Below are positions 3,379 to 58,360 of a DNA stretch of 64,000 nucleotides, piece after piece. This DNA is from Acidobacteriota bacterium (GTDB taxonomy: Bacteria > Acidobacteriota > UBA890): positions 210,214 to 274,213 of the forward strand of contig CBDCBL010000009.1 of the NCBI GenBank assembly GCA_965214245.1, written 5' to 3'. Position numbers and translations under genes: made by a program. The notes beneath the pieces are model-generated. The model was not told the origin of the DNA. It did not search any database and saw only the letters and a program-made list of their open reading frames with translations. How positions within the stretch are numbered: the first letter of the stretch is position 1; each line of letters opens with the position of its first letter.

Positions 3379-3656
3379 TCAGTACCGCACCGCGAAGCCA
3401 TCGATTTCACCGCGCGGCGTCTCCCAGCGGACTTCGACGTCATCAACGCGCGCCCCCGATGGGGGGGGTGTCCGTGCCCACAGTAGTCGAGAAGCGCCTC
3501 ACAAGCCGATCTCGGGCCCTCTGCGACCGCCTCCACCCTGCCGTCCGGCAAATTGCGCACCCAACCCGAGAGTGCCAGGTCGGCGGCGCGACGCACGGTG
3601 CTGGCGCGAAAGAACACGCCTTGAACGCGACCCCTGACCCGCAGCTCGAGGCGCAC
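3379..3656 (-). pseudogene. acyP: acylphosphatase, interrupted by a frameshift in a G8/C8 homopolymer (3467-3474)
   Basis: GTG start at 3656 gives [48 protein letters not shown]...LLDYCGHG; after the 8-nt homopolymer the conserved C-terminus [28 protein letters not shown] is read in the adjacent frame, ending at TGA 3379-3381. Confidence 0.7.
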
Positions 3657-3673: not shown

Positions 3674-4087
3674 CTATTGCAGGTCGGTGCGGAACGTCTC
3701 CATCCTGATCTCGCGAGCCGGTCCCCAAATCGAGCTCTGCGTGCCGACTACCAGCGTCAGACTCTTGCGCGCCGCGTTGTCGTCGACAATTTGCCAGCGA
3801 ATGTATCGATCCGGGTCGCCGTTCCACGGATCAATCGAGTAGTTGGCATTCGATCCGACGATCGAGCCGCCGGCAGCGAGGTCGGCATGCGTGAAAGGCA
3901 AGGCGCGCATGATTTCCATTTGCTCGACGCCGGCTGCGGTCAGTTCTGTCATTTCCTGAGCCACCGCCGACGTCTGCACGGCCATCAGCATCATTGGCGC
4001 CACCGCCAACGAGATCAGGCCGACGAGGAACGTGGCCACCAGCACCTCGACGAGGGTGAAACCCGAAGCGTCTGTCTTTCGGATCAT
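3674..4087 (-). CDS. type IV pilin-like / pseudopilin (prepilin-type N-terminal cleavage-methylation domain)
   Basis: [31 protein letters not shown]: class III leader ending in Gly followed by F and hydrophobic helix with E5; ORF track 3674..4117, start taken at second Met. Confidence 0.6.
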
Positions 4088-4118
4088 GCGGGTGTTCCTT
4101 ACTGTGAACGATCCCAAC

Positions 4119-7165: not shown

Positions 7166-8449
7166 ATGAGTGCGTCCGTGCCGCGTTCCGTTACCGAGCA
7201 GTTGCTGTGGATTTCCGGCGGCATGGCGCTCATATGGACGCTCTCCATGCCGCTGTCGGTGGCCGTCGCCGAGGCGGCGCTGTGGCTATCGGCGGCGCTG
7301 TGGGCCGTCGCCTGGTTGCGGCGCGAGCTCGGGCCGAATGGCGCCGAACCGCCCGCCGCGCCGGGGCCGGCGGGTGACGCTCTGGGCCTGGTGGGCGCCC
7401 CCATCATCGTCTTCTTCGCCGTTTCCTTGCTCTCCGCGGCCCTGTCGCGCGACAGCGTGGCCAGTGTCCTGGAGCTGCGCGAGCTATTTTTGTTCGCGGC
7501 GCCGCTGGTGACCTGGGCGACGTTCCGCGACGCGGCGGCGCGAGACCGCGGGCGCCTCATGTTCGGCATCGGCATCTTCGCGTGCACCGCCATGGGCTTG
7601 GCGCAAACGTTCGTGCATTTCGGCGACGCGATGTTCCGGCCCACAGGATTCCTCGGCCACTGGATGACCTTCTCGGGAATGCTGTTGATCGGCGTACCCC
7701 TGCTCCTCACGATCCGCTGTGGCGCGCGGCGCTACGCCGCACAAGCCGCGGCGGTATTGGCTGTCGGGATGATCGCCCTCACCATGACCCGCAGCGCTTG
7801 GATCGGCTGTGCCGTTGCCCTGGTCGTCTTCTTTGCGAGCGGGCGAGTGCGCGGCCTGGAGCCCTCCGAAACGGCGCAACCGCCTCGTCTCCGCCCCGCC
7901 CTCTACGGCATGACGTTGCTCATCGGCATCATCATCGTGGCGTTGCTGGTGGGTGCGATTGCCGGGCCTGATGCTCTCTTCAATCGCGCTGCCAGCATCT
8001 TCTCGATGAACGCGCCAAGCAACGTCGATCGCCTGGCAATGGCGGCAACCGGTCTGCGGATCATCAGGGCCTACCCGTACTTCGGCATCGGACCGGGCCT
8101 GGTTGGCGAGGTGTACTCCGCGTGGGTCGTCGATTGGGGGGTACGTGACGACAATCCGCATCTGCACAACAACATCATCCAGATCGCCGCCGAGCGGGGG
8201 CTGGTGGGTCTGGCCGCCTGGCTGTGGATGATGGCGGCACTTCTGGTGGTCGCCTGGAGGGTGTTACGCGCCGTGGGTCCGGACGGCGAAGGAGGACCGG
8301 AAGCGCGAGCCGCTCTCGCAGCCCTGCTCGGCTTCCTGTCCATGGGGATGTTCGAGTACAACTTCAGCGATTCTGAAGTCCTGATGGCCCTCCTGTACGT
8401 CGCCTCGCTACCGTTGGCGGCTAGTGCGGGGATGGGGAGGAAGACGTAG
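7166..8449 (+). CDS. O-antigen ligase family (Wzy_C) polytopic membrane protein; candidate pilin O-oligosaccharyltransferase (PglL/PilO-like) or WaaL
   Basis: Roughly 10 predicted TM helices, MTRSAWIGCAVALVVFFA and a periplasmic loop typical of Wzy_C; ORF track starts at TTG 6989 but first ATG with membrane start is 7166; divergent from the pilin operon. Confidence 0.65.
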   Translation: MSASVPRSVTEQLLWISGGMALIWTLSMPLSVAVAEAALWLSAALWAVAWLRRELGPNGAEPPAAPGPAGDALGLVGAPIIVFFAVSLLSAALSRDSVASVLELRELFLFAAPLVTWATFRDAAARDRGRLMFGIGIFACTAMGLAQTFVHFGDAMFRPTGFLGHWMTFSGMLLIGVPLLLTIRCGARRYAAQAAAVLAVGMIALTMTRSAWIGCAVALVVFFASGRVRGLEPSETAQPPRLRPALYGMTLLIGIIIVALLVGAIAGPDALFNRAASIFSMNAPSNVDRLAMAATGLRIIRAYPYFGIGPGLVGEVYSAWVVDWGVRDDNPHLHNNIIQIAAERGLVGLAAWLWMMAALLVVAWRVLRAVGPDGEGGPEARAALAALLGFLSMGMFEYNFSDSEVLMALLYVASLPLAASAGMGRKT

Positions 8450-28494: not shown

Positions 28495-30234
28495 CTAACC
28501 CCTCCAGCGCAGCAACATCAGCGTCACGTCGTCGCCGCGCGGGCTGGCTCCACGAAAGGCTCGCGCATCGTGTCGCACGGCGGCGATAATCTCGCTGACG
28601 GGGCGCTCACGCTCGTCCTTGATCAGCCGGGACAAGCGCTCGAGCCCGAAATCCTCACCCTCCTGATTGTACATCTCCGTGAGTCCATCGGTGTAAAAGA
28701 CAATCAGGTCCCCGGCATCGAGGTCGATGGATCGTTCCTCGTACGCGGCGCCGGCGAACGCTCCGATGATCAGACCCGTGCTGTCGAGCTGCTCCGCGAC
28801 GTTCGCCCCGATACGTAGCGGCGGCGCGTGGCCGCCATTGCTGTACACCAAGTGCCCGGAGCCCGTATCGAGATGCGCCAATACCGCGGCGACGTACTGA
28901 TTGGCAGGTGTCGACTCGTACAGCAACCTGTTGAGCCGCGTTGCCAGAGCCGCCGGCTGGGCGTCGGCGCCGCTGAATCGAACGGCGCTACGTACCGCCG
29001 ACATCAGCAAAGACGCCGACAAGCCATGTCCCGAAACGTCGGCGAGCGCCAGGCGAAGGCACCCTTGCTCCGTCCAAAAATAGTCGAAGTAGTCGCCACC
29101 TACTACGTTCGAGGCCACGTTCACGCCCATCACGTCGACGCGATCGTCGGACAGGTGCTCGGCGGGTAGCGCCGCCGCCTGAATCTCGCGGGCCAGCTCG
29201 AGCTCGTGGTCCAGTCGTGACCTTTCAACGTCGCGCTGATACAGGCGGGCGTTGGTGATCGCCGAAGCCACATGACCGCCGAAGATCTCCATCAAACCAA
29301 CCTGCCGATCGCTGTATGCTGCGCCGGCGTCGGACTCGACGGTGATCACGCCGATAACCTCGTTAGCGCGCAGAATGGGTACCGCTACCTCCGATCGGGT
29401 GCTGGGGCGGACCTCGATGTAACGCGGGTCCTCTTTGACGCGGCCGGCATTGACGCTGGTCTTGTGGCGCGCCACCCACCCGGTGATCCCGGTGCCCGGC
29501 TCCTCGTTCAGCCGTAACACCACGTCGGGTGGATAGCCGCGATGCTGCACGTCGGTGAACTTGCCGGTTTCGCTGTCGAGCAGGTATACGCCCACGGCGT
29601 CGTAGGGCACCAGCTCGGCCAGCGTTGTCAGCAGCGCCGCAAGCACCTGGTCGAGATCGAGCGTTCCGCCGACGGCGCGTGCCGCATCGAGAAGCAGCTC
29701 GCGCTCGCGGACGTCCTTCTGCAACTGTTCGATCAGTCGAGCGTTCTCCACAGCCACGGCGAGCTCATCGCCAACCGCCATGAGGAATTGCAAGTCGTCT
29801 TCGGCGAAAGGCTCCGGACGCTCACGAATGCCCTCGATCAGGCCGTTCAACACCTCTCGCCGCCGCATCGGCACCGCGATGAGCGCCCGGGCCCGGGTAC
29901 CGAACTCAGAATCCAGCTTGCCCTCGTAACGCGGCTCATCCGCAACGTCGTCGACCATGACCGGCTCGCCGGTGTCGAGCACGTAGCCACTGATGCCGAG
30001 GTCAACACTTACCGCCCCACGTTCCATCGCGCCGCCGCGCCGGGCGAAGGACACCTGCAGGTCCTGGGCTTCCTGACGCTCAGCGGCGGTGATGAAAATG
30101 GACACCGCGTCGGCGCCGATCGCCTCACCGATCAGCTCCAAGACCCGCCCGACGGCCGTTTCGAGCGTCAACGACGCGTTCAAGGCCCGGGCTATCGAAA
30201 GCATCACCGCTTCGCGCTCGATCACGCTCATCAA
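28495..30234 (-). CDS. GAF-GAF-PP2C (SpoIIE/RsbU-like) serine phosphatase
   Basis: Two GAF domains followed by PPM phosphatase motifs (GGDYFDYF...DVSGHGLSA...FYTDGLTE). Confidence 0.8.
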   Translation of the reverse strand: MMSVIEREAVMLSIARALNASLTLETAVGRVLELIGEAIGADAVSIFITAAERQEAQDLQVSFARRGGAMERGAVSVDLGISGYVLDTGEPVMVDDVADEPRYEGKLDSEFGTRARALIAVPMRRREVLNGLIEGIRERPEPFAEDDLQFLMAVGDELAVAVENARLIEQLQKDVRERELLLDAARAVGGTLDLDQVLAALLTTLAELVPYDAVGVYLLDSETGKFTDVQHRGYPPDVVLRLNEEPGTGITGWVARHKTSVNAGRVKEDPRYIEVRPSTRSEVAVPILRANEVIGVITVESDAGAAYSDRQVGLMEIFGGHVASAITNARLYQRDVERSRLDHELELAREIQAAALPAEHLSDDRVDVMGVNVASNVVGGDYFDYFWTEQGCLRLALADVSGHGLSASLLMSAVRSAVRFSGADAQPAALATRLNRLLYESTPANQYVAAVLAHLDTGSGHLVYSNGGHAPPLRIGANVAEQLDSTGLIIGAFAGAAYEERSIDLDAGDLIVFYTDGLTEMYNQEGEDFGLERLSRLIKDERERPVSEIIAAVRHDARAFRGASPRGDDVTLMLLRWRG

Positions 30235-30610
30235 TTCAACCGTTTTCCACTAGTGGACTAAATGCCCGGTCTGCCTTTGATGGCAAGGGTTTACGAGGAA
30301 CGCACAGTCTACGCGAGGTCTCCGCGAATGGGTAGTTTTGGGCTATTTTTGGTATCAGTCTAGTTGGGCTTTCGTCCCCGAGCACCGACACCCCGCCGCG
30401 CTGACGCCCCCGGCCCGGAAGCTCAAGGCGTCACCGAACGTCCGTGTACGCATGTCGGTTTGCCAAACATCGGGGGCCGCCCGGCGAGGTGCTCCCCGGC
30501 CAGGTGGGCAGGCGTGAGCGAGCGCGAGCTGACGTCAGCCATGCACCCCGGGTGGGGGGTTTTAACTTCAAGGGGTGCGGGCGGGCGAGTACCCGTCCAG
30601 GCTTCAGAGC

Positions 30611-30646
30611 GCGACAAAAACGAAACGGGGTTAAGGCCCCCGTCGC
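30611..30646 (-). terminator. candidate intrinsic terminator downstream of the PilZ gene
   Basis: Minus strand reads ACGGGGGCC-UUAA-CCCCGU followed by UUUCGUUUUUG (stem 5-6 bp, U-rich tail). Confidence 0.4.
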
Positions 30647-30695
30647 CCGTGGACAAGATGGTCCCTGGCGACTAGGGCGTGGCGTCGCTTGTCGC

Positions 30696-30944
30696 TCAGG
30701 ACTCCGACGCGGTGGTCTCGGGATCACTGCCCGTGTTCAGGACTTCCAGCGGGCTGTCGAACTCGACGACGTATTGTCCAAACACCTCCATCCGCAGCAC
30801 CTTCCCGTGCATGGTCTTCGTGCCGCCGACACGGTCTTGCGGGTCCTCGGCGAAGTGAACAAGGCAACCGTCGCCGAGCAATGGCTCGGGTATCCCATGC
30901 TCAAGGACCACTTTCATCCCGCCACGGCTGATGTCCCGCACCAC
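30696..30944 (-). CDS. small PilZ-domain (c-di-GMP receptor-like) protein, possibly N-terminally truncated
   Basis: GVVRDISRGGMKV (DxSxxG) ...; the in-frame upstream 32 codons (RSHDERQGYLRVEVD...) contain an RxxxxR-like segment but no ATG/GTG/TTG between the stop at ~31043 and GTG 30944. Confidence 0.5.
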   Translation of the reverse strand: MVRDISRGGMKVVLEHGIPEPLLGDGCLVHFAEDPQDRVGGTKTMHGKVLRMEVFGQYVVEFDSPLEVLNTGSDPETTASES

Positions 30945-31174
30945 TCCGTTGGTTGGTTCGATACCAAGGCACCCGATGGTGACCTGGAGCCTGTCCAGGT
31001 CAACCTCGACCCGCAGATACCCCTGACGCTCATCGTGTGATCTTCAGGCAATGTCATGGTCCTCGAACAGCAGCAGAGAGCAGCGGCAGCACGGCGACGA
31101 GTGTAGGTTCATACGCACGATCTCTCCTGTAACGGGACGAAAGGCGTTTCGGCCTGGCTTGTCGAGCACGCTCA

Positions 31175-31828
31175 TCAATCAGCGGGTCCTCTGGGCTGCG
31201 CCTGTAGCAGTGGGTCGGTGTGCTCGTCGAGATGCCCGGTTGCATTGAGAGCGCGCAGACACGTTCGCCTCTCGCCGATGTCGAGCACCGTCAACGCCGT
31301 GTTGTCCACCGTGATGGAACGATACAACTGTAACGACATGTCCAGGGCATCGAGCACGGCGATGCGAATCACCCCGTCGTGAGTCGTCGCCGCGACGCTC
31401 TGGCCTTGGTGGTTGCGGCGCATCCGTTGCAGCGCTTGGCGAATACGCCCGCGCAGATCGGCGAACGGCTCGATTCCCTCCACCAACAAGGCGGACGGGT
31501 CGGCGCACCAGGTCCGCCACGCCTGCGGGTCGCGGGCTTCGATCTCCGCCGCCGACAGGCCTGCCCAACGGTCGAGGCCGAGCTCGTTGAGCCCCGGCTC
31601 GACCCGGACCTGGAGGGCGTGCGGCTGGTTGACGATCTCGGCGGTCTCTTTGGCGCGCCGCAACGGGCTGGTGTAGAAGGCGTCAATGCGGGCGCTGGCG
31701 AGCCGCTGCGCCAGGCGTCGCGCCTGCCATCTGCCGGCGCTCGCCAGCGGCTCCTCGGACCGACCCATGTAGCGCCGCTCCTTGTTCGACTCGGTAACAC
31801 CGTGGCGGATCAGAAGAAGACGCGTCAT
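31175..31828 (-). CDS. histidine phosphatase family protein (phosphoglycerate-mutase-like, CobC-like)
   Basis: LLLIRHGVTESN RHG catalytic motif; 4-nt overlap with lon stop. Confidence 0.7.
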   Translation of the reverse strand: MTRLLLIRHGVTESNKERRYMGRSEEPLASAGRWQARRLAQRLASARIDAFYTSPLRRAKETAEIVNQPHALQVRVEPGLNELGLDRWAGLSAAEIEARDPQAWRTWCADPSALLVEGIEPFADLRGRIRQALQRMRRNHQGQSVAATTHDGVIRIAVLDALDMSLQLYRSITVDNTALTVLDIGERRTCLRALNATGHLDEHTDPLLQAQPRGPAD

Positions 31829-34338
31829 GAGGGCCGCCGCGGCGTCGCACCGGCGCTGCGCGAGCGTTTGGCAGCCAGCGAAGCCTTTGCCCGCTTGCGG
31901 CGTCGCGACCGCTTGGGATCGGTGCCCAGCGCCACGTGAAGCACTTCACCGATGTTCTTGACGAACACGAACTCGAGCCCCTCGCGCGCCTGCTCGGGCA
32001 CTTCCTCGAGGTCCTTCTCGTTCTTCGCCGGCAAAACGATGCGCTTCAAGCCGGCACGGCGCGCTGCCAGCACCTTGTTCTTGATCCCGCCCACCGGCAG
32101 CATCAGGCCGCGCAGCGTGATCTCACCGGTCAGGCCCAGATCCGGCGCCACCGGCTTGCCGCTGAACAGGGAGGCCAACGCCACCAGCATGGCGATCCCC
32201 GCCGAGGGGCCGTCCTTGGGTACGGCGCCGGCTGGAACGTGAACGTGCAGATCGTACGACTCGAAATCTCGAGCCGAGATGTCAAACTCCGCGGCGCGGC
32301 TGCGCAGGTATGAGAGCGCCGCCTGGGCGGATTCCTTCATGACCTCGCCGAGCTGGCCCGTCAAGGTCAGCTCCCCCTTGCCGGGCATTCGAGTTGCCTC
32401 GACGAAGAGTATGTCGCCGCCGTACGGGGTCCATGCCAGGCCGGTGGCAATTCCCGGCAAGGCGGTGCGCTCGGCAACCTCGGCGAAGTACTGGATCGGG
32501 CCGAGGAATCCATGCAAAGAGTCGGCGGACACCGTCTGCGTCGCCGCCGCAGCATCGCTGTCGCCCCGATCTAGACTCTCGGCAACGGTGCGCGCCACCG
32601 CCCGGCAGATCGCCGCGATTTGACGCTCCAGGCCGCGCACGCCGGCTTCTTCCGTGTAGCTCTGAACGATCTCTGTGATGGCCGCGGCATCGAACTCGAG
32701 GCGCGCGGCGTCCAATCCGTGTTCCTCGATCTGTCGCGGCACCAGGAAGCGCTGCGCGATCAGTGTCTTTTCTTCGGCCGTGTACCCGGGCAGTTCGAGA
32801 ATCTCCATACGGTCGAACAGGGCGTCCGGAATCTGTTCCGGAACGTTGCCGGTGGCAATGAACAGCACCTTCGACAGGTCGACGGCCACCTCCAGGTAGT
32901 GGTCCGAGAACATGTGGTTCTGCTCCGGATCCAGCACCTCCAGCAACGCCGACGACGGATCGCCACGGAAGTCGTTGCCGAGCTTGTCGATCTCGTCGAG
33001 CATGAACACCGGGTTCATCGAGCCGGCGCGCTTGAGCCCTAACAAAATCCGCCCCGGCAAGGCACCGACATAGGTTCGCCGGTGCCCGCGTATCTCGGCC
33101 TCGTCGTGCACACCGCCGAGCGAGATACGCACGAACTCGCGCCCTAGAGCTCGCGCGATCGACCGTCCGAGCGAGGTCTTGCCGACGCCCGGAGGTCCCA
33201 CGAAGCAGAGGATCGGCCCCTTGGTGTCCGGCTTGAGCTTGCGGACGGCCAGATACTCCAGAATTCGCTTCTTGACCTTGTCGAGGTCGTAGTGGTCCTC
33301 GTGAAGGATGGCCTCCGCCGCCACGATGTCGAGGTTGTCCTCTGTTGATGTGGCCCAAGGGATGTCCAAGATCCAATCGAGGTAGGTGCGTACGACGTTG
33401 TGCTCGGCTGCAACCGGTGACATTCGCGACAATCTGTCGAGCTCCTGCCGGGCGACCTTCTCTACCTCGTCGGGCATCTCGGCCTTGGCGATTCGCTGCC
33501 CCAGGTCCTCGACCTCCGCCAGATCGTCGTCGGCTTCACCTAGCTCGCGACGGATCGCCTGCAGGCGCTCGCGCAGATAGAACTCACGTTGACTCTTGTC
33601 GATCTCGTCCTGTACTTCAGATTCGATCTTCTGCGACAGTTCGAAGATCTGGACCTGGCGCGCCAAGCGGCGGACCAGCAGCTCGAGACGAGCTTCGGGC
33701 TCATCGCTCTCCAGAAGCTCCTGCCTGTCGGCCACCGAGATGCTCAGGTGAGCCGCCACGAGGTCGGCGAGCCCACCCGGATCGGGGGTGGCTCCAGCGA
33801 GGCCCTGGATTTCCGGCGGCAGGTTGCTCGGCAGCTTGACGATCTGCTCGAGGAGGCGATGCACGCTCAGCATCAGGGCCTCGATCTCGATGCTCTCCGC
33901 CGCTGTTGCCGGCTCGATCGGTTCGGCCGCGGCCGTGAAGTACCCGTCGGTGATCCGGATCTCGTCGAGATCGACACGCACCAGACCTTGGACGATGACG
34001 TTGAGCTTGTCGTTGGGCAGCTGCAACGTCTTCAAGATACGGGCGGCCGTCGCGCGCCGATAGATATGTTCGGCCTGAGGATCCTCAGGGCTGCCGTCCT
34101 TAGTGGCTGCCGCGGCGAACACACGCTCACCGCCACGCGCCGCTTCGACGAGCTCGAGCGCCGCCGGGCGGGTGACCAGCAACGGCATAACAACGCCCGG
34201 GAAGAGCACAGTGCCGCGCAACGGCAGCACCGGAAGAGCGTCGGGAAGCTCGGCTACCGAGCCGTCGGACTGTAACGCGTCCTCCAACAATTCGGTGAGG
34301 TTGGGATCGGTCGGGTCGTTCACGAAATCATCCTTCAA
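31825..34338 (-). CDS. lon: ATP-dependent protease Lon (La)
   Basis: 837 aa: LON N-domain, [18 protein letters not shown] Walker A, catalytic [11 protein letters not shown] Ser and K; unusual ~35-aa basic C-terminal tail. Confidence 0.95.
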
Positions 34339-35285
34339 GACTTGAATCGGTCGCGCGGGTCATAAGGATGATCGCGCTGGAATTTCTCGAGGAGATTCTT
34401 GGTCTCCTTATCGAGCTTTTCCGGCAGCTCGATGCGAACTTTCACGTACAGATCGCCGCGATCGTCTTTCCCTGCCTTTGGAACCGGTGCCCCCTTGCCG
34501 GCGATGCGAATCACCTGGCCGTTCCGCGTCCCAGCGGGCAACTTGATGCTGGTCGAGCCGTTCAGCGTCCGCACTTGAATGGTACCGCCCAAGCCAGCCT
34601 CGTACAGCGTCACCGGTAGATCGAGATGCAGGTCGGTGCCGCGCCGTTCGAAGAGCCGATGCTTTGCCACATCGAGTCGCAGATAAAGGTCGCCTGGAGG
34701 ACCGCCGCCGATCCCGGGTTCGCCCCGCCCAGCGACCCGAATTCGTTTGCCGGCGGCCACTCCGGCCGGGATCCGCACCTTGGTGGAACTGGTTTCGCTG
34801 CCACCCTGTTCGGTGGGGCGCATGTAGCGAACCGTTCGTTCGACGCCATGCACCGCTTCTTCGAAGGATAAGGAAAGGGGCATCTCGATGTCGCGGCCGG
34901 CGGACATCATCCCCATGCCGGGCCGGCCGGGCCGTCCGCCGCCCTGCCCCGCGAACACCCCGAAAATGTCTTCCAAGCCGCCAACGCCGAACGAGAAGCC
35001 GCCACCCATTCCTCCGAAGCCGCCTTGGAATTGTTGGAAGAAGTCGCTCAGATCGACGTCCTGGGCGAACTGCTCGGGGCCGCGGTCATACGCGGCGCGA
35101 CGCTCCGCGTCGCCGACGACGTGGTACGCCTCCGCGATCTCCTTGAAACGCTCCTCGGCTGCGGGATCCCCCGGGTTCACATCGGGGTGATGCTTGCGGG
35201 CGAGCTTCCGGTAGGAACGCTTGATCTCGTCCGCGTCGGCGTCCTTGGAGACCCCGAGGATCCCGTAGTAGTCCTTCTCCGCCAT
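34335..35285 (-). CDS. cbpA: DnaJ-class chaperone without zinc finger (CbpA-like)
   Basis: J-domain DYYGILGVSKDADADEIKRSYRKLARKHHPD, Gly-rich linker, DnaJ C-terminal domains, no CxxCxGxG repeats. Confidence 0.75.
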   Translation of the reverse strand: MAEKDYYGILGVSKDADADEIKRSYRKLARKHHPDVNPGDPAAEERFKEIAEAYHVVGDAERRAAYDRGPEQFAQDVDLSDFFQQFQGGFGGMGGGFSFGVGGLEDIFGVFAGQGGGRPGRPGMGMMSAGRDIEMPLSLSFEEAVHGVERTVRYMRPTEQGGSETSSTKVRIPAGVAAGKRIRVAGRGEPGIGGGPPGDLYLRLDVAKHRLFERRGTDLHLDLPVTLYEAGLGGTIQVRTLNGSTSIKLPAGTRNGQVIRIAGKGAPVPKAGKDDRGDLYVKVRIELPEKLDKETKNLLEKFQRDHPYDPRDRFKS

Positions 35286-35299: not shown

Positions 35300-37942
35300 C
35301 TAATTTCCGGCGTCGGCTGCCATCGGCTCTTCTTCGGGCCGCGGCGCCGCGCTCTTTTTGAACACCAGGATGGAGTCCGACACGTCGACATCGGCCCAGA
35401 TGAGGTCGCCCTCCTGGAACTCATCGCTCAGGATTCCCTGGGCGAGGGGGTTCTCGAGCAGTTTCTGGATGACGCGCTTCAAGGGCCGGGCACCGTAGAC
35501 CGGATCGAACCCGCGATCGGCAACGAAACGTTGCGCCTCATCGGTCAGCTCCAGTCGCAAGTGGCGATCGGCCAGCCGCTGATTCAAGTCGGCGAGCTGG
35601 ATGTCAACGATCTCGATGATCTGCGCGGCGCTGAGCGGATGAAACAGGATCGTCTCGTCGATTCGATTGAGGAACTCCGGGCGAAACGTTGCGCGCAACT
35701 CCTCGAAAACACGCTCGCGCGTCTCGTCGAGGCCCAGATCGGCGAGCTCCTGTAGGTACTGGCTGCCGACGTTCGACGTCATGATGACCACCGTGTTGGA
35801 AAAGTCCACGGTGCGGCCCTTGCCGTCGGTCAAACGGCCGTCGTCGAGGATCTGCAAGAGAATGTTGAAGACATCAGGATGGGCTTTCTCGGTTTCGTCG
35901 AAGAGAATCACCGCATACGGCCGACGGCGGACGGCCTCCGTCAGGTAACCGCCCTCATCGTGTCCGACGTAGCCGGGTGGAGCCCCGATCAAGCGCGCCA
36001 CCGCGTGGCGTTCCATGTACTCGGTCATGTCGATGCGAATCAGCGCGTCGATGCTGTCGAAGAGGAACTCGGCCAACGCCTTGGCAAGCTCGGTCTTGCC
36101 GACTCCGGTCGGCCCCAAGAAAAAAAACGAGCCGTAGGGTTGGTTCGGCGCCTGCAGACCGGCACGGGCCCTGCGGATAGCGTTCGAGACCGCCTCGATC
36201 GCTTCATCCTGGCCGATGACCCGCGCGTGCAGCTGCTCCTCCATGCGCAGGAGCTTTTCGGTCTCGCGCTCCAGCAGGCGGGTTACGGGGATTGCGGTCC
36301 AGCCCGACACGACCGCGGCGATGTCGTCGGCATCCACCTCTTCCTTGAGCATGCCGTGCTCGTCGCCCTGCAGCTCCTCGAGCTGTTTTTTTGCGGTCTC
36401 CAACGCCTGCTGACGATCGAGAATCGTACCGTAGCGCAGCTCGGCGGCGCGCTCGAGATCACCTTCGCGCTCGGCCTTCTCGGCCTGGTTCTTGGCGTCC
36501 TCGATGTCACGTTTCAAGCCCCGGAGCGCCGCCACCTGATCCTTCTCGGCCTGCCAGCGAGTGTGTAGCTCGTCGTACGAGGCGTTCAGGGTGGCGAGAT
36601 CCTCCTCGATCTTGGCGAGACGGTCTTTGGAGTTCCGATCACGCTCCTTGGCCAACGCCTGGCGCTCGATCTCCAGCTGGCGGCGCCGGCGGCCGAGCTC
36701 GTCCAACTCGACCGGCAGGCTGTCGATCTCCATGCGCAGGTGCGCGGCGGCCTCGTCCACCAGGTCGATGGCCTTGTCGGGCATGAAGCGATCGGCGATG
36801 TACCGCTCCGCCAGATTGGCGGCGGCGACCAGCGCGCTGTCCTTGATGCGGACACCATGGTGTACCTCGTAGCGCTCCTTGAGCCCCCGTAGAATCGAGA
36901 TGGTCTCCTCGACAGACGGCTCGCCTACCATCACGGGCTGGAAACGGCGCTCGAGGGCGGGGTCCTTCTCGATGTACTTGCGAAACTCGTTCAGCGTCGT
37001 GGCGCCCACCGCATGCAGCTCGCCGCGGGCGAGCGGCGGCTTGAGCATGTTCGCCGCATCGACGGCGCCTTCGGCAGCGCCGGCGCCGACCACCGTGTGC
37101 AATTCATCGATGAACAGAATGACGTCGGTGTCCTCCTGGATCTCGCGTAGAAAAGCCTTCAATCGATCCTCGAACTCGCCGCGATACTTGGCGCCGGCGA
37201 GCATCGAGCCGATGTCCATACGCACGACACGTCGGTTCGCCAGGCTCGAGGGCACGTCGCCGTTGATGATGCGCTGCGCCAAGCCTTCTACAATGGCCGT
37301 CTTGCCGACGCCCGGCTCGCCGAGAAGCACCGGATTGTTCTTCGTACGCCGCGACAGCACTTGCACCACGCGACGGATCTCCTCGTCGCGTCCGATCACT
37401 GGATCCAGTTTGCCCCGGCGCGCCATCTCAGTCAGATCGACGCCGTACTGCTCGGTGGCGTTGTACTTGTCTTCCGGGTTGGGATCGGTCACACGCATGG
37501 TGCCGCGCACCTGTTTGAGGGCGGCGAACAGCGCGTCGCGCTCGATGCCGGCCTGCTGCAGAACGGTCGCCGCCGCGCCGTCAGCGGCCAGGAGACCGAG
37601 GAGGATGTGCTCGGTTGAGACGTATTTGTCATCGAGCTGATCAGCCTCGGCCTGTGCCGCGTCCAGCGCCACCTTGGCCTCGGCCTCCAGATAGAGCTCG
37701 AGCGCAGCGTCTCCCTCGACGGACGGCTTACGATCGATCTCGGCGCGCGCCGCGTTGGCGATCGCGTCGGGGTCACCTCCCAATCGTTCGATGATGTTGC
37801 GCACCACGCCTTCGCGCTGCTCGAGTAGGGCCAGCAACAGATGCGGCCCGTCCAGCCCCTGGTGTTGCTGCGACTGCGCCAGTTGCTGGGCCCGCTGAAC
37901 AGCCTCTTGTGCCTTCACAGTGAAACGGTCGAAACGAATCAT
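35300..37942 (-). CDS. clpB: chaperone ClpB
   Basis: 880 aa, two AAA+ modules ([15 protein letters not shown]; [15 protein letters not shown]) and coiled-coil M-domain. Confidence 0.95.
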
Positions 37943-38565
37943 GTCTTGTAGGTCCTTGTCCCATCATCCATCGAGCGCAACACCGCTACGACTCGCCCCA
38001 ACAGCTCGAACTCGTCGCGGTACACAGTAGCGTCGTCGACGCGGCGAACACCACGCCGCCCTGGGAGCATCTCGACCAGCGTGGTGCCGCGACCGATCTG
38101 GCCCACGGCGAGCTCACCGGCTGCCGGCTTGGTGCCGGACACCACGATCACGTAGTCGCCGCGCAGGATGCCGTGACGTTCCAGACCACTGAGATTGACG
38201 CGCACGGCAATGGCGCCGTGTCCGGCTAGCCGGCTGTCGAAGAGCAAGTGCCGGCGCTTGCGACCTTCCGCAGACAGCCGCTTGCGGGCCGGCAAAGTGC
38301 CGATCACCGGAACCCGCACAGCCGTATCTGAGGGGTTGTGCCGCTGGCTCAGATCCGTCAGCTCGATGCCTCGCGCCATTCCCGGCCGACGGCGTATGTA
38401 GCCCTTCCGCTCGATCGCCCGTAGGTGATCGGCTACCCCGGAGGCCGAGGCCAGCTCGAAGGCCTGGGCTATCTCGGTAAGGCTGGGGGGGATGCCGCGG
38501 CCGCGAACCCGCTCCACGATGAAGTCGTAGATCGCGCGCTGCCTCGATGTGAGAGAGGTCGTCAC
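37939..38565 (-). CDS. lexA: LexA-family repressor homolog; Ala-Gly scissile bond and catalytic Lys apparently not conserved
   Basis: GTG start at 38565 gives LTSRQRAIYDFIVERVRGRGIPPSLTEIAQAFELASASGVADHLRAIERKGYI (LexA wHTH); S24-like C-domain aligns GILRGDYVIV with LexA GILDKDYVIV; Ser retained (VNLSGL) but the TVKR Lys position reads TLVEML and the cleavage region VPVIGTLPARKRL lacks Ala-Gly. Confidence 0.75.
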   Translation of the reverse strand: MTTSLTSRQRAIYDFIVERVRGRGIPPSLTEIAQAFELASASGVADHLRAIERKGYIRRRPGMARGIELTDLSQRHNPSDTAVRVPVIGTLPARKRLSAEGRKRRHLLFDSRLAGHGAIAVRVNLSGLERHGILRGDYVIVVSGTKPAAGELAVGQIGRGTTLVEMLPGRRGVRRVDDATVYRDEFELLGRVVAVLRSMDDGTRTYKT

Positions 38566-38597
38566 CGTAGTTTCGGATTGGAGTATTGCGTTGTCGT

Positions 38598-38612
38598 TCG
38601 GAGGTTGTTCAG
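38598..38612. promoter_or_regulatory. GTTC-N7-GTTC direct repeat (alphaproteobacterial-type LexA box) between a putative sigma-70 promoter and the lexA start
   Basis: GTTCGGAGGTTGTTC on plus strand (GAACAACCTCCGAAC on the coding strand); putative -35 TTGCTG / -10 TATACT, 17-nt spacer, in the AT-rich stretch 38640-38668. Confidence 0.4.
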
Positions 38613-38689
38613 AAGTGCCGGCGCTTCCGGAGGCAACGACCAGTATACTATAAATATTTACAGGCAGCAACGAAACGAGAGCCGACCTG

Positions 38690-39370
38690 TTAGCCGACGT
38701 TCTCTCGGTACCACAGGCAAAGGTCGGGCAGCGCGCAGCTATCACATAGGGGCCGCCGCGACTTGCAGGTGTAGCGGCCGTGCCAGATGAACAGGCGTGT
38801 GATGTCGGCCCAATGCCTCTCATCGTAGAGCTCGCGCAGCTCGGCCTCGACCTTGTCGGGCTTGTCCTCGACGGTGAGCCCCAACCGTTGGCTCACGCGG
38901 CGGCAATGAGTGTCAACCGCGATCGCCGGCTTGCCATAGGCCTGAGCCAACACGACGCTCGCCGTCTTGCGCCCGACGCCGGCAAGCGACGTGAGGTCTT
39001 CCATCGTGTCGGGAACTTCGCCGGCGAAGCGCTCGACGACATCCGTACAGCACGACTGTATGTTATTGGCCTTCTGTCGAAAGAACCCGGTGGAGTGAAT
39101 CGCGTCTTCGAGCCCGCCGCGATCGGCGTTGGCGTAGGCGCGAGCGTCCGGGTAGTCGACAAACAGGGTCTTGGTAACCCGGTTGACGCGGTTGTCGGTG
39201 CACTGCGCCGACAAGATGGTCGCCACCAACAGCTCCAGCGGGTTGCTGAAGTTCAGCTCGACACGGGCGTCCGGATACGATTCGTCAATGCGGGCGAGGA
39301 TCTCGTTGGCCTGCTCCACCTGGTTCACGTTCGGCCGGCGCGGACGTTCACTCTTCCTCGCCCTCATCGC
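38690..39370 (-). CDS. nth: endonuclease III (Nth)
   Basis: HhH-GPD, LAGVGRKTASVVL, [4Fe-4S] loop CKSRRPLCDSCALPDLC. Confidence 0.85.
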   Translation of the reverse strand, partial: AMRARKSERPRRPNVNQVEQANEILARIDESYPDARVELNFSNPLELLVATILSAQCTDNRVNRVTKTLFVDYPDARAYANADRGGLEDAIHSTGFFRQKANNIQSCCTDVVERFAGEVPDTMEDLTSLAGVGRKTASVVLAQAYGKPAIAVDTHCRRVSQRLGLTVEDKPDKVEAELRELYDERHWADITRLFIWHGRYTCKSRRPLCDSCALPDLCLWYRENVG

Positions 39371-40169
39371 CCTGTCCATCCTCGGCGCCCGGTTCCTCCC
39401 AGGGGATCTCGTCGCCAACGCGCAGCGCCGTAGTCAGCAATTGGGTGTGCCCCACCATCCGGTGGCCCGGACGGGTACGGCCCGGACGAGCGAGGATCTC
39501 GCGAACCAGAATCTCGATGGTTTTCACCATGGCAAAGCCCTCACCGACAAGGCACGCGGCAAGCTTTTCCACCTGGTTGAAGGTCGGCGTCGCGGAAGCG
39601 AAGCGACCACTGCCGATAAGGCACTCGCGTGCCGCCGTCACCTCGTCCCATGGCTCTGGAATGTCGCACATCACGGCGTTGACTTCCGGTTCCAGGGGCT
39701 CAGCGTTGTTGCGCAGCCGAAATTCGACAAGCGACGGATCGACGCCGGCGCGGGCAACGTTGTCGGCGGCGCGCTGCTTGAACTCGGCGCGGCGGTCGTA
39801 CGTGAACACCTTGCCGCCGGGCGCCACGGCATGCGCCAACGCGATGGTCATCGCCCCCGACCCCGTGCCGAGCTCGACCACCCGATCCCCAGGCGACAAG
39901 CCGAGCTCGGATATCAAGTAGCCAACGTCCTTCGGATACATGATGTTGGTGCGTCGCTGGACCTTCATCATCCGATCGACCCAGGTTGGAAACATGGCGT
40001 GAATGGGCGACCCGGAGCTCGTGCGCAGCAGCGAGCCGTATGGCTGGTCGATCAAGCGGTCATGGTGCACGACGCCCTTGTGCGTCGAAAAGGTGCGCCC
40101 CGGATGCAAATGAATCAGGAATCGGCGCTCGTCCTCCAGAACAAGGAGCACCACGTCACCTTCGGCCAT
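39348..40169 (-). CDS. trmI: tRNA (adenine-N1)-methyltransferase TrmI/GCD14-like
   Basis: MAEGDVVLLVLEDERRF..., SAM motif VVELGTGSGAMTIALA; start at M29 of the ORF-track ORF. Confidence 0.7.
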   Translation of the reverse strand: MAEGDVVLLVLEDERRFLIHLHPGRTFSTHKGVVHHDRLIDQPYGSLLRTSSGSPIHAMFPTWVDRMMKVQRRTNIMYPKDVGYLISELGLSPGDRVVELGTGSGAMTIALAHAVAPGGKVFTYDRRAEFKQRAADNVARAGVDPSLVEFRLRNNAEPLEPEVNAVMCDIPEPWDEVTAARECLIGSGRFASATPTFNQVEKLAACLVGEGFAMVKTIEILVREILARPGRTRPGHRMVGHTQLLTTALRVGDEIPWEEPGAEDGQGDEGEEE

Positions 40170-44366: not shown

Positions 44367-44846
44367 ATGGCACGCATCAACGTGACCGTCAACGGGGTCG
44401 AACACAGCCACGAGGTCGAGCCGCGCACGCTCCTGGTGCACTACCTTCGGGAGACGTTGGGGCTCACCGGAACACACGTCGGCTGTGAGACCAGTATTTG
44501 TGGAGCCTGCACCGTCATGATTGATGGGCGAGCCACCAAGTCCTGCACCAAGCTCGCCGTGCAGGTCGACAGCGTAGCTATCATGACCGTCGAAGGCCTT
44601 GCCGCCAACGGTGAGCTGCATCCTCTGCAGCAGAGCTTCTGGGACGACCATGGGCTGCAATGCGGCTTCTGCACGCCGGGAATGCTCCTTTCCGCGGCCC
44701 AACTCCTCGAGCACAACACCGACCCCGATGAAGCCGAGGTCCGGCACGCTCTCGAGGGCAACCTGTGCCGCTGCACGGGTTACCAGAACATCGTGAAAGC
44801 GGTGCAGTCGGCGGCCCGCGTCCTGCGCGAAGGAGGTTCGGCATGA
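44367..44846 (+). CDS. coxS: (2Fe-2S)-binding small subunit of a xanthine-dehydrogenase-family molybdoenzyme (CoxS-like)
   Basis: [43 protein letters not shown]...CGFCTPGM...CRCTGY. Confidence 0.85.
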
Positions 44847-47188
44847 GCGAGCCCCAAGCCCCCCAGGTCCCAAAATTCATCGGCGCGAGAATTCGACGCA
44901 AGGAGGATCCGCGGCTGATCACCGGGGCGGCGACCTATACCGACGACATCACGCTCCCCGGAATGCTGTACATGGCGCTGACACGCAGCCCCGAGGCCCA
45001 CGCACGTGTGGTCGGCGTCGATACTTCGACGGCCGTCGCGATGCCCGGCGTGACCGCCGTATACACCGGTGCGGACCTCGCCGACGCCATCGCATCCTTG
45101 CCCTGCGTGCACAGTATCGAGGACCTGAAAGAGCCGCCCCACCCCGCGGTCGCAACCGATCATGTGTGCTACGCCGGAGACGCCGTCGCCGTGGTCATCG
45201 CCGCGACGCCGGCGCAGGCAGAGGACGCGGTGGGCGCCGTCGAGGTCGAGTACGAATCCCTGCCGGTAGTCACCGACATGGTTACCGCCACGGAAGAGGG
45301 CAGCGACCTGGTGCACGAGGCCCTCGGCACCAACATTGCCTGCACCTCGGTGACCGAGGCGGGAGACGTCGCGGCGGCATTCGACAACGCCGAGGTCGTG
45401 GTCTCACAACGTATCGTCAATCAACGCCAGGTGCCGCTGGCCATGGAACCGCGGGCCGTGGTGGCCGAATACGACGCCGGCCACGACAAGCTCACGGTGT
45501 GGACGACGACGCAGGTGCCGCACTTCGTGCGCCTGCTTGTAGCCGCGGTTTGCGGACATCCCGAGCACCGGGTGCGGGTTGTTGCCCCGGAAGTCGGCGG
45601 CGGCTTCGGCAGCAAGCTCAACTTCTACGCCGAAGAGGCGCTGGCACCGTACTTCGCCAAGACCCTCGGGCGCCCGATCAAATGGACCGCCCGGCGTACC
45701 GAGGACATGTTGGTCACGACGCACGGACGCGATCAGGTATGCGACCTCGAGGCCGCGGCCGACAGCGAGGGCAAGTTGCTCGGCCTGAGAATCACGCTCT
45801 ACCAGGATCACGGCGCGTATCACCAGCTGCTGACGCCGGTGATCGCCGGTCTGACGGTGCTCATGATCGGCGGTTGCTACACGGTGGAGAACATTCATGT
45901 CACACAGCACGGTGTGTTTACCAACAAGACGCCGATCGACGCCTACCGCGGCGCCGGCCGGCCGGAGGCGACGTTCATCATCGAGCGGGCGATGGATCTG
46001 ATCGCCGGCGCCGTGAGGAAGGACCCCATCGAGGTGCGGCGGCTCAACTTTCCCGCCGCCGACGCGTTTCCGTTCGCCACGGCGACGGAACTCGAATACG
46101 ACTCGGGTAACTACCAGGCAACGCTCGACAAGCTCGTCGACAGCGTTGATTACGACGCGCTGCGGGCGGAGCAGGAGCAACGCCGCGGCGACGGTGAGCT
46201 GGTCGGCATCGGCCTGTCGACGTATGTCGAGATCTGCGGCATCGGTCCTTCGGCCGCAATGACCGCCGGTGGCTGGGAGGCTTGCGAGCTCGAGGTGCGG
46301 CGCACCGGAGCCGTCGTCGTCAAGACGGGCATCTCGGTGCACGGCCAGGGACAGGAAACGACCTTCGCCCAGATCGTCGCCGATGGCCTCGGCGTGGCGC
46401 TGGACAATGTCGAGGTGATACACGGTGACACCGATACCGTGGAGCAAGGCATCGGCACCTTCGGGTCGCGCGGTCAGGCGGTGGGCGGGGCGGCGCTGTC
46501 GCTTTGCCTCGACACGATCCAAACGAAGGCTCGCCGCATCGCGGCCCACCTGCTGGAAGCAGCGGAAGACGACATCGTGTTCGAGGACGGCAAACTGTTC
46601 CCCAAGGGCGTGCCGGCCAAGGCGCTGGAGTTTCAGCAGATCGTCGACGCCGCCTACGTCGCGCAAGACCTTCCCGAAGCCATGGAGCCCGGCCTTTCAG
46701 CGACGCATTTCTTCGAACCGCCGAACTTCACCTTTCCCTTCGGTGCCCACCTGGCGCTGGTCTCGATCGACGCGCAGACCGGTGTTGTCGACCTCGAGCG
46801 CTACGTCGCGGTCGACGACTGCGGGCGCATCATCAATCCGACGATCGTCGAAGGGCAGCTGCACGGCGGCATTGCCCAAGGCATATCGGAGGCCCTGCTC
46901 GAGAACGGGGTGTATGACACCAACGGCCAACTCGTCAGCGGCTCGTTGATGGACTACGCCATCGCCAAGGCCGATTCCCTGCCCCACCTCGAGCTCCACC
47001 AGACCGAAACCTTGACGCCGGTAAATCCCCTCGGTGCCAAGGGAGTCGGCGAGGCCGGAACGATCGGCAGCCCGGTGGCCGTGATGAACGCGGTCGTCGA
47101 TGCGTTGTCGGCGTTCGGCGTAACGCACATGGACATGCCGGCGTCGCCGCAAAAGGTGTGGCGCGCAATGCAGAGAGGCGCAGAATGA
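44843..47188 (+). CDS. coxL: molybdopterin-binding large subunit, form II CO-dehydrogenase-like (AYRGAGR active-site loop)
   Basis: 782 aa from MSEPQAPQV; GGGFGSK Mo-cofactor motif; [11 protein letters not shown] matches the form II (not form I VAYRCSFR) signature; ATGA overlap with coxS stop. Confidence 0.85.
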
Positions 47189-57368: not shown

Positions 57369-58360
57369 CCCGAACTTCTCGACGCTCGCCGACCCAGATC
57401 GTGTAGCGCCCGCCGGACCTCGATGCGCACCATTTTCTTACGCCAGTGGTACATCAGGTCGACATTGTCGAGCGGCGTCGCCGCCTTGAACGCGGCAGCC
57501 GCGGCCGCCTCGATCGCGTCGTCGGTGAGCTCGCGACCCTGCAGCAACTCCGCCGCCGCATCGACTTCGACGGGATGCGTGTGCACTGCCCCCAACACGA
57601 GGCGGGCGTGCTCGACCGTCGCTCCTGAGAACCGGAGGCTCGCCGCAACGCCGAGGATCGGGAAATCGATGCTTCCCCGACGCCGGACCTTCCGGTACGT
57701 GCTGACGGCCCCGGCGGATCTGGGAATCAAGACCTTGGTGAGAATCTCGTCGGGCTGACGGGTCAGGTAATCGATGCCGTCGTCCCGGTACATCGCCCGC
57801 AGTGGAATATCGCGCTCGCCCGACGGGCCGGTCAAGACGACGCGCGCCCCCAGCGCCATCAAAGCCGGCGCCGCGTCCGTCGAGGACACCGCCCAGCATT
57901 TGGCGCTTCCCGGGGCAACCAGACAAATGTCGCCTTCCCGCTTCATGCAGAAACCGATGGACTCGCGCCACTCATGCGTCTGGTTGTAGTAGTTGCAGCG
58001 TGTATCGACGCACAGATTCCCGCCGAGCGTTCCCTGGCGCTGGATCTGCGGATTCGCGATCTGCCGGACGGCCTCGACCAATCCCGGCAGCTCGGCGGCG
58101 AGCGCCGCGTTGTCGGAGATTTCCTGCAGGCGCATGCCGCCACCTAGAACCACCTCCCCATTCATCGATGTGCCGCGTAGGTCCGCAAGGCTGCCGACGG
58201 ATACCAATACCTTGGCGTCGAACTGACGGCGCTTGAGGTTGGGAATCAGGTCGGTCCCGCCGGCGAGAACCATGGATTCGCCGAGGTGATCGGCGAGCAC
58301 CCGCGCGGCTTCCTGCACTGAGGTCGGACGAACGTAACGGAACGGAGGGAGTCGCAGCAT
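57365..58360 (-). CDS. hcrB: FAD-binding medium subunit with extra 4-Cys [4Fe-4S]-type insertion, 4-hydroxybenzoyl-CoA reductase HcrB-like
   Basis: MLRLPPFRYVRPTSVQEA...AGGTDLIPNLK FAD domain; insertion GGNLCVDTRCNYYNQTHEWRESIGFCMKREGDICLVAPGSAKCWA with Cys spacings 16/8/9; ATGA overlap with upstream large subunit. Confidence 0.75.
   Translation of the reverse strand: MLRLPPFRYVRPTSVQEAARVLADHLGESMVLAGGTDLIPNLKRRQFDAKVLVSVGSLADLRGTSMNGEVVLGGGMRLQEISDNAALAAELPGLVEAVRQIANPQIQRQGTLGGNLCVDTRCNYYNQTHEWRESIGFCMKREGDICLVAPGSAKCWAVSSTDAAPALMALGARVVLTGPSGERDIPLRAMYRDDGIDYLTRQPDEILTKVLIPRSAGAVSTYRKVRRRGSIDFPILGVAASLRFSGATVEHARLVLGAVHTHPVEVDAAAELLQGRELTDDAIEAAAAAAFKAATPLDNVDLMYHWRKKMVRIEVRRALHDLGRRASRSSG

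Follow-up and report, generated by a model that had tools for sequence, protein, structure and literature searches.

The lexA-like gene analysed here probably encodes a non-cleaving, autoregulated repressor of the LexA family that controls a proteostasis operon. In textbooks, LexA is the switch that turns on the bacterial DNA-damage response by cleaving itself. The loss of its catalytic residues, the position of the gene at the head of a clpB-dnaJ-lon operon and a conserved palindrome in the promoter together give the protein the look of an SOS repressor turned to the control of a stress operon. Features of the locus are listed in Table 1 by their positions in the 64-kb stretch of DNA analysed (hereafter, the window).

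Table 1. Features of the lexA-like locus in the window and their conservation or context
Feature	Positions	Strand	Remarks
Histidine-phosphatase family gene	31175..31828	-	ATG overlaps lon stop
lon protease gene	31825..34338	-	True start probably ~10 codons inside listed ORF
dnaJ/cbpA-like co-chaperone gene	34335..35285	-	Pfam J domain and DnaJ_C; zinc-finger domain absent
clpB disaggregase gene	35300..37942	-	ATG overlaps lexA-like stop (ATGA)
lexA-like gene, 208 aa, GTG start	37939..38565	-	LexA winged-helix domain and S24-like fold
GTTC-N7-GTTC repeat, GTTCGGAGGTTGTTC	38596..38610	+	In predicted 5' untranslated leader
-10 hexamer TATACT	38642..38647	-	TAnnnT in 16/16 orthologous loci
Proposed operator, 16-bp imperfect palindrome CTGTAAATATTTATAG	38648..38663	.	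Same place in 16/16 orthologous loci
-35 hexamer TTGCTG	38665..38670	-	TTGnnn 17 bp upstream of -10 in 14/16 orthologous loci
nth (endonuclease III) gene	38690..39418	-	Conserved upstream neighbour

The minus-strand open reading frame is intact, with its GTG start at 38563-38565 and its stop at 37939-37941, and several assemblies encode an identical 208-aa protein (P0001). A Pfam profile search of the product matches residues 4-67 to LexA_DNA_bind (PF01726, E=1e-22), which confirms the original prediction of a LexA homologue whose N-terminal domain is canonical. This is the sole domain above threshold in that search, as Peptidase_S24 (PF00717) reaches 13.8 bits, short of its cut-off of 23.3. 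The product also falls below the whole-protein threshold of the lexA model TIGR00498 (107 bits, cut-off 110.95). The AF2 model has a mean pLDDT of 85, and its top Foldseek matches are the full-length LexA proteins of T. maritima and E. coli; more widely, the structure search leads to the LexA, lambda cI and UmuD family. The N-terminal domain superimposes on the solution structure 1lea with a TM of 0.89, and the C-terminal domain on that of LexA with a TM of about 0.67-0.71. According to the model, the LexA-like C-terminal fold is retained despite the S24 sequence score below cut-off.

Residues of the protein are numbered on the 209-codon translation, with E. coli LexA as the reference, and were mapped by HMMER alignments to solved LexA structures and by MAFFT alignments, which agree. 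The position of the scissile bond, A84-G85 in E. coli, holds A94-R95, an Ala-Arg pair in place of Ala-Gly. At the K156 position stands V165, and there is no Lys anywhere near the K156 strand. Both losses, of the Ala-Gly bond and of the catalytic Lys, had been predicted, and both stand. The Glu proposed for the Lys position lies one residue off, at the position of R157, and the catalytic column itself holds Val. The Ser region had also been thought roughly kept, which the alignments contradict: the S119 position is occupied by G128, and the nearby Ser, one residue earlier (the E. coli M118 position), is out of register and lies in a column that is variable across the family. With no Ala-Gly bond and no catalytic Lys, self-cleavage of the protein is not expected, as had been anticipated, and HMMER and MAFFT concur on the missing residues.

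These losses extend well beyond the window. The clade comprises about 90 clusters at 90% identity (roughly 8-10 at 50%), and the reading frame is intact in about 90 clusters. Lys156 is missing in 91 of 91 close relatives, none of which has the full AG+S+K site, and no clade member has Ala-Gly at the scissile position, whereas AG/S/K is kept in all 29 canonical neighbours from the same match list. Loss of the catalytic apparatus is, on this comparison, a trait of the whole family. The N-terminal domain is strongly conserved within the clade (mean pairwise identity 74%), and the core of its recognition helix is invariant. The C-terminal domain averages 43% identity and holds residues that are invariant across the clade, a pattern indicating that it is still under constraint. 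The named closest canonical relatives belong to Gemmatimonadota, Latescibacterota and similar groups, most matches being nameless.

Across the 16 orthologous loci, the gene order lexA-like, clpB, dnaJ, lon is kept wherever the sequence reaches far enough, and it occurs in 0 of 73 canonical-LexA loci of other phyla. The lexA-like gene and clpB are translationally coupled, the stop codon of the first overlapping the start of the second, in the window and in L007, L084 and L087; ClpB domain matches come from the orthologous loci. This order and the overlapping stop and start codons support the reading of lexA-like to lon as a single predicted transcript. The histidine-phosphatase gene, similarly arranged in L087, may close the operon. 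Upstream, nth is followed by a terminator-like hairpin (38681-38698) and, lying upstream of the promoter and the proposed operator, would be outside their control. In L086, an IS1595 insertion parts the lexA-like gene from nth, and the operator-bearing promoter and clpB are kept. Synteny in the lineage extends over more than 15 kb to either side of the lexA-like gene, so gene adjacency is weaker evidence than it appears. One locus outside the clade, L038 (Planctomicrobium), was considered as the same arrangement and rejected, as its LexA is canonical and its downstream Clp ATPase gene is 240 nt away.

The TTGCTG and TATACT hexamers of the original prediction are present and conserved (Table 1); the two orthologous loci that depart from TTGnnn are L007 (TTTTAT) and L086 (TGATAT). 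The 17-bp spacer between the hexamers is filled by the palindrome, an arrangement that recurs in 16 of 16 orthologous loci with the clade consensus ACCGTAAATATTTACGGT. A PSSM of the palindrome has only one match in the 64-kb window, at this promoter, and zero matches outside these promoters in 173 kb of clade loci. In one subclade, a further site lies exactly 20 bp upstream and overlaps the -35 hexamer. In L007, the most distant clade member, the box reads CGAAC-N4-GTTCG, which is a classical LexA motif, and canonical lexA genes of Gemmatimonadota, Latescibacterota, Nitrospirota and Terriglobia have a LexA box in the same promoter spacer. Between two subclades, the recognition helix and the palindrome half-sites change in step. 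The palindrome is likely the operator of the LexA-like protein, which we infer to be its binder. Sequence comparison supports autoregulation through a palindromic box in the gene's own promoter.

A point against this reading is that the copy in the window is among the more degenerate ones, with outer CCT/AGT versus ACC/GGT. Neither the conserved 16-bp palindrome in the promoter spacer nor the clpB-dnaJ-lon operon was part of the original prediction. Metagenome contigs were scanned with the exact pattern ACCGTAAWNNWTTACGGT, and the clade promoter accounts for 1 of 80 among the matches listed (L141). None of the remaining 79 among the matches listed lies close to a LexA-like, clpB or nth gene; nine of these were inspected closely, and a LacI-type operator (L105) and sites within open reading frames were among them.

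The mechanism that we favour involves a dimeric LexA-family repressor that retains its DNA-binding domain and S24 beta-fold but has neither the scissile bond nor the two catalytic residues. Given these losses, it would not be switched off by RecA-stimulated self-cleavage. It would bind the palindrome between the -35 and -10 hexamers of its own promoter, and the bound repressor would block RNA polymerase there. The repressed unit would consist of the lexA-like, clpB, dnaJ/cbpA-like and lon genes, and possibly the histidine-phosphatase gene. By analogy with CtsR and HspR, proteotoxic or heat stress may lead to derepression, with release either through thermal instability of the repressor or through its dependence on the chaperones under its control. 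A more far-reaching version, which we offer tentatively as a possibility, is that this Acidobacteriota lineage turned LexA into a new proteostasis (heat-shock-type) repressor. Its non-catalytic S24 domain would serve in dimerisation and stress sensing, and the protein would autoregulate clpB-dnaJ-lon and answer protein damage, not DNA damage; the lineage may then lack classical LexA-controlled SOS.

Is the protein, then, still a regulator of the DNA-damage response? It might be inactivated by means other than self-cleavage (through a partner protease, by an anti-repressor or by Lon) and govern a wider repair regulon, in which clpB-dnaJ-lon would be just one target, or a passenger. In architecture, the promoter is homologous to those of true lexA genes, the constant upstream presence of nth, a DNA-repair gene, keeps a link to DNA damage in play, and no canonical lexA was found in the 64-kb window. 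One candidate from outside the window, P0095, was rejected as the canonical LexA of the L081 genome: it comes from the same sample, but its separate contig and its coverage (109x versus 12.7x) indicate an organism other than L081. We nevertheless consider a DNA-damage role unlikely. The residues needed for a RecA-stimulated response are gone in every one of the 91 members, operator copies occur only at this promoter in 236 kb of clade DNA, and the genes predicted to be co-transcribed are all proteostasis genes, none of them for repair.

It is quite improbable that the palindrome is bound by another regulator or is a mere feature of the spacer, the LexA-like protein being a relic of little regulatory role. 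Faster evolution of the C-terminal than of the N-terminal domain might be read in this way, but the conservation of the N-terminal domain and its recognition-helix core, the reading frame intact in about 90 clusters and the confident structure model all argue against decay. The palindrome, moreover, has LexA-box geometry and is placed where canonical lexA genes carry their box.

In Acidobacterium capsulatum, a member of the same phylum and background to the idea of a direct-repeat operator, the LexA box is reportedly GTTC-N7-GTTC. The repeat of this form that had been proposed as the LexA box of the gene is indeed present in its leader, but a role as operator is not supported. The window contains 3 copies against 2.2 expected, and at least 3 are reached in 41 of 100 shuffles; the other two copies lie at 2403-2417 and at 3612-3626, the latter within an acylphosphatase-like ORF. 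A second canonical lexA beside the 3612-3626 copy was considered and rejected, given that the site is inside that ORF and the adjoining 215-aa ORF is spurious. Among the 15 orthologous upstream regions, the repeat occurs at the same place in one, L001, with one mismatch, and because L001 is the closest relative (its protein is 87% identical) this retention counts for nothing. We rejected the repeat as an operator, as it is not enriched and is conserved, with a mismatch, only in the nearest relative; from these comparisons, we judge it to be a chance or lineage-private feature.

A separate reading would make the leader repeat the true operator of a second LexA, of the type found in Alphaproteobacteria and encoded elsewhere in the genome. 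It could draw on the perfect match at 38596-38610, on the imperfect copy in L001 and on the alpha-type lexA reported from A. capsulatum (Mazon et al. 2006, title cited in PMC4951493). With the repeat unenriched in the window and missing in 14 of 15 other orthologous leaders, L001 too close to weigh and no alpha-type LexA encoded in the window, we regard this as very improbable. The A. capsulatum protein is reportedly a canonical, alpha-type and laterally acquired LexA, whereas the LexA-like protein is closest to LexA of the Gemmatimonadota/Latescibacterota type, and its promoter has a palindrome, not a conserved direct repeat.

There is next to no chance that the protein is an ordinary self-cleaving LexA whose missing catalytic residues are an alignment artefact, for although TIGR00498 is missed by little, two alignment methods agree, Pfam S24 is below threshold, the K156 strand has no Lys near it and the whole clade is cleanly distinct from its canonical neighbours.

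The favoured reading, a non-cleaving repressor of a proteostasis operon, can be set against known systems. The two-domain architecture and the fold are shared with canonical LexA (E. coli LexA, B. subtilis LexA/DinR and the TIGR00498 family), which has a similar 16-bp palindromic box within its own promoter spacer. In the window, CTGT-N8-ATAG matches the gammaproteobacterial box CTGT-N8-ACAG in geometry. However, canonical LexA has Ala-Gly, Ser119 and Lys156, none of which is found in the LexA-like protein, which scores under both the NCBIfam and the Pfam S24 cut-offs. The recognition helix reads S-A-S-G-V-A-D-H, versus S-P-N-A-A-E-E-H in canonical LexA, and the partner genes are clpB, dnaJ and lon instead of repair genes.

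In their predicted logic, the closest parallels are CtsR, HspR and HrcA, which are autoregulated repressors transcribed together with the Clp, DnaJ and Lon genes under their control. CtsR is encoded by the first gene of the clpC operon, and HspR is encoded in the dnaK operon, with a regulon that includes clpB and lon. Their operators lie over the core promoter, as does the operator proposed here. By Pfam and Foldseek, the LexA-like protein has no sequence or fold kinship with CtsR, the MerR-type HspR or HrcA. The promoter likewise shows no operator of the HrcA or HspR type: no CIRCE was found in the window with up to 3 mismatches allowed, and no HAIR at the operon promoter, the 3 HAIR-like matches elsewhere in the window being at chance level. 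An Rfam scan of the window, covering RNA thermometers and other RNAs, gave zero matches, and PADLOC gave no meaningful match.

A LexA without Ala-Gly and the catalytic Ser is known from Synechocystis sp. PCC 6803 (Sll1626), where it does not act as an SOS on/off switch but binds the hspA promoter and regulates stress genes, among them the small heat-shock gene hspA (PMC3091678, PMC7567884). Both proteins lack the Ala-Gly bond and the nucleophile Ser. Only these two are named as missing from the Synechocystis protein (PMC3091678, PMC7567884), and here the Lys is gone as well. The lineages are unrelated, one cyanobacterial and the other of Acidobacteriota, and no cyanobacterial protein is among the named close relatives of the LexA-like protein, most matches being nameless. 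In the Acidobacteriota, the trait is clade-wide and the gene is built into a chaperone/protease operon. A literature search for a LexA-like regulator of clpB or lon, or for LexA in these Acidobacteria, returned nothing relevant.

To our knowledge, work on non-cleaving LexA has so far centred on one cyanobacterium. Here, the catalytic loss is fixed across a whole environmental lineage of Acidobacteriota. Because the putative repressor heads a clpB-dnaJ-lon operon and has a well-defined proposed operator in the promoter, it offers a clear, testable target. If the favoured reading is true, the few bacterial repressors known for heat shock or proteostasis would be joined by one derived from LexA, and stress regulation in a poorly cultured Acidobacteriota group would become accessible for the first time. 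The protein would also be a clean case of a protease domain put to new use in regulation, without catalysis.

The product of the lexA-like gene lacks all three sequence requirements for LexA self-cleavage. Residues were mapped with HMMER alignments to solved LexA structures and with MAFFT alignments that included E. coli LexA and canonical relatives, and the two mappings were concordant at the catalytic positions (numbering follows the 209-codon translation; subtract one for the mature product). The scissile bond is lost (E. coli A84-G85 corresponds to A94-R95), S119 corresponds to G128 and K156 to V165. Because these positions read A-R, G and V, the protein is predicted to be unable to use LexA self-cleavage chemistry, in line with the original prediction of a homologue that does not autocleave and has no Ala-Gly bond. 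That prediction held the Ser region to be roughly kept, which proved incorrect: its Ser (S127) occupies the M118 position, a variable column in the family, and the loss of Ser makes the case stronger. The catalytic Lys is indeed gone, but the Glu assigned to its place is the next residue, at the R157 position.

Family scans divide the protein: residues 4-67 match LexA_DNA_bind (PF01726, E = 1e-22), confirming the canonical N-terminal domain, whereas Peptidase_S24, at 13.8 bits, misses its cut-off of 23.3 and the NCBIfam lexA equivalog, which aligns end to end, scores 107 against 110.95. In the profile alignment, Ala-Gly, Ser and Lys are not at the conserved positions. The LexA fold is kept. 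An AlphaFold model has a mean pLDDT of 85 and is closest in structure to the full-length LexA proteins of T. maritima and E. coli; its C-terminal domain aligns with solved LexA C-terminal domains at TM ~0.67-0.71. Mean identity within its clade of close relatives is 74% in the N-terminal and 43% in the C-terminal domain, with several invariant residues, and for these reasons the protein is not decaying. An identical protein is recorded in several assemblies, one contig being 1.36 Mb long, and a near-identical family member sits on a 4.39-Mb contig.

Among the best 120 matches from 5.8 billion proteins, 91 form this clade. The combination of Ala-Gly, Ser and Lys occurs in none of these, the Lys156 position always being V, I, A, M or L, and in all of the other 29. 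The clade is small: when a profile was searched against 1.84 billion representatives at 50% identity, ~8-10 clusters scored above 190 bits, followed by a drop to the canonical LexA background. A few unrelated LexA-like proteins outside the clade in the same search (P0148, P0157, P0163, P0166, P0194 and P0141) also have an incomplete cleavage site or dyad, such as Ser or Ala combined with Arg at the Lys156 position, and LexA catalysis seems to have been lost several separate times. Clade members from a one-genome-per-species scan (L001-L007) all come from MAGs labelled Acidobacteriota or unclassified; metagenome assemblies yielded more (L081-L089), one with a cluster member annotated Acidobacteria. 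The nearest canonical LexA among source-named proteins are from Gemmatimonadota, Latescibacterota, Tectomicrobia and other phyla.

The main alternative to the repressor of chaperone and protease genes that we propose is a DNA-damage regulator that is still in service and is switched by another route, which we consider unlikely. The LexA of Synechocystis, which like the window protein lacks Ala-Gly and Ser, is a precedent for the proposed repressor: it does not work as an SOS switch, it binds the hspA promoter, and phosphorylation may tune it (PMC3091678, PMC7567884). For the genome of locus L081, a canonical LexA found in the same sample was considered and rejected, its very different contig coverage pointing to another organism.

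The promoter originally called, with its 17-bp spacer, holds across the family: a -35 hexamer, 17 bp holding a palindrome and TAnnnT are found in this layout in 16 of 16 loci, with TTGnnn as the -35 in 14. A LexA-type palindrome thus lies in the core promoter of all relatives, and in the window it and one extra base make up the spacer exactly. The family consensus, with one flanking base per side, is ACCGTAAATATTTACGGT.

Features of the lexA-like locus, in window coordinates unless a locus is named
Feature	Position	Strand	Remarks
lexA-like ORF, intact	37939-38565	-	GTG start 38563-38565, stop 37939-37941, 208 aa
GTTC-N7-GTTC box, GTTCGGAGGTTGTTC	38596-38610		Originally predicted; in predicted leader of lexA-like transcript
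-10, TATACT	38642-38647		Originally predicted
16-bp palindrome, CTGTAAATATTTATAG	38648-38663		Proposed operator, window copy
-35, TTGCTG	38665-38670		Originally predicted
Tandem operator, example	L082:7920-7957		
Histidine phosphatase gene	31175-31828	-	Directly past lon
GAF-GAF-SpoIIE (PP2C-type) phosphatase gene	28495-30234	-	Past lon

A PSSM made from the palindrome sites, at a threshold where 0.35 false matches are expected per 64 kb, found no other site in the 64-kb window, and across 173 kb of clade loci its matches were confined to lexA-like promoters, bar two apparent exceptions. One subclade (L006, L082, L084, L088 and L089) has a second site exactly 20 bp upstream (start to start), overlapping the -35, an arrangement hinting that two dimers bind cooperatively to the same face of the DNA. 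At L086 (4759-4796 and 4859-7849), nth, the upstream neighbour, is separated from the lexA-like gene by an inserted IS1595-family transposase with several small ORFs; the old tandem pair, 20 bp apart, remains beside nth, and a new promoter with one operator, at 7916, serves the displaced gene.

Three observations connect the palindrome with the LexA-like protein. GAAC-N4-GTTC is the classical LexA motif, and the box of the most distant member, L007, carries it (CCGAACAAATGTTCGG). Canonical lexA genes of Gemmatimonadota, Latescibacterota, Nitrospirota, a deltaproteobacterium and a Terriglobia MAG likewise carry their box between -35 and -10, exactly in the 17-bp spacer at L010, L016, L026, L034, L210, L014, L019 and L069, and the promoter design was therefore inherited from true lexA. 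Those promoters are of near-consensus TTGACA/TATAAT type and their boxes vary (TGAAC-N4-GTTCA, TGCAC-N4-GTGCA, CTGAAAATATTTTCAG, CTGT-N8-ACAG, CGAAC-N4-GTTCG). Finally, half-sites shift with the recognition helix: S-x-S-G-V-x-D-H accompanies GTAAA in both arms in the window's subclade, versus S-x-A-G and frequent CGAAA in the other. Matches listed in a metagenome scan with the 18-bp operator pattern were almost all unrelated. One (ACCGTAAACGTTTACGGT, L105:11039-11056) lies on an unrelated contig, flanked by genes for a Gfo/Idh/MocA-type oxidoreductase and a LacI-family regulator; it is probably an operator of LacI type and shows that palindromes of this class also occur outside the clade.

The GTTC-N7-GTTC box predicted upstream of the gene is present, but an operator role for it is ruled out as a conserved feature: the window holds 3 copies against 2.2 expected, another of them within an acylphosphatase-like ORF, and of 15 orthologous upstream regions only that of L001, the closest relative, shares it, with one mismatch. 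That it serves a second, alpha-type LexA in this species finds no support here. Acidobacterium capsulatum is reported to have an alpha-type LexA (Mazon et al. 2006, as cited in PMC4951493).

The stop of the lexA-like gene overlaps the clpB ATG (ATGA, 37939-37942), and the same strand continues with a dnaJ/cbpA-like gene (J domain and DnaJ_C; Pfam reported no zinc-finger domain), lon, and a histidine-phosphatase gene overlapping the lon stop. The order nth, lexA-like, clpB, dnaJ, lon is kept in every clade locus of sufficient length, and occurs in none of 73 canonical-LexA loci of other phyla; at L038 a Clp ATPase gene lies 240 nt past lexA, yet that LexA is canonical. The lexA-like and clpB genes overlap by 4 nt at one extreme and stand a few tens of bases apart at the other, except in L081, where a ~300-bp insertion (L081:8597-8904) with long inverted repeats (GGCCGTGGTGAAAGTGTG ... 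CACACTTTCACCACGGCC) resembles a miniature transposable element or a REP; L084 has a related repeat, CACACTTCCACCACGGCC, 3' of clpB. Synteny in the lineage extends beyond 15 kb to either side (glnA ... moeA, corC, trmI, nth ... rarA), which makes adjacency alone weak evidence; the argument for a putative operon is built on the reading-frame overlap and the single operator-bearing promoter. Neither a CIRCE element anywhere in the window nor a HAIR element at the promoter of the operon was found.

The phosphatase pair also follows lon in L087, and L081 has the GAF-SpoIIE gene there. The ~940-bp gap between the two genes in the window (30235-31174, no ORF of at least 200 aa) is missing at the matching junction in L087. 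Should the repressor be under phosphorylation control, as suggested for Synechocystis LexA, these phosphatase genes may matter. An Rfam scan of the window gave no matches. Elsewhere in the window, a small ORF with a type IV pilin-like N-terminal segment (3674-4117, -) adjoins large secreted-looking ORFs, and the xanthine dehydrogenase/aldehyde oxidase family is represented by two separate molybdopterin-binding large subunits (44765-47188, +; 58360-60786, -) <15 kb apart.

The conserved spacer operator and the fixed clpB-dnaJ-lon coupling across this Acidobacteriota lineage are the more interesting facts, and we found no description of them for such a LexA-like gene in the searchable literature. 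We propose that the protein binds the palindrome as a dimer and, once bound, would occlude RNA polymerase, repressing an autoregulated lexA-like, clpB, dnaJ, lon transcript. Lon-dependent release is less likely: if damaged proteins titrated Lon away, the effect would have the wrong sign for a repressor. CtsR and RheA are thermally unstable, HspR requires DnaK and HrcA requires GroEL; by analogy, the LexA-like repressor could itself be thermally unstable, or could depend on the chaperones under its control, and would be released under proteotoxic or heat stress.
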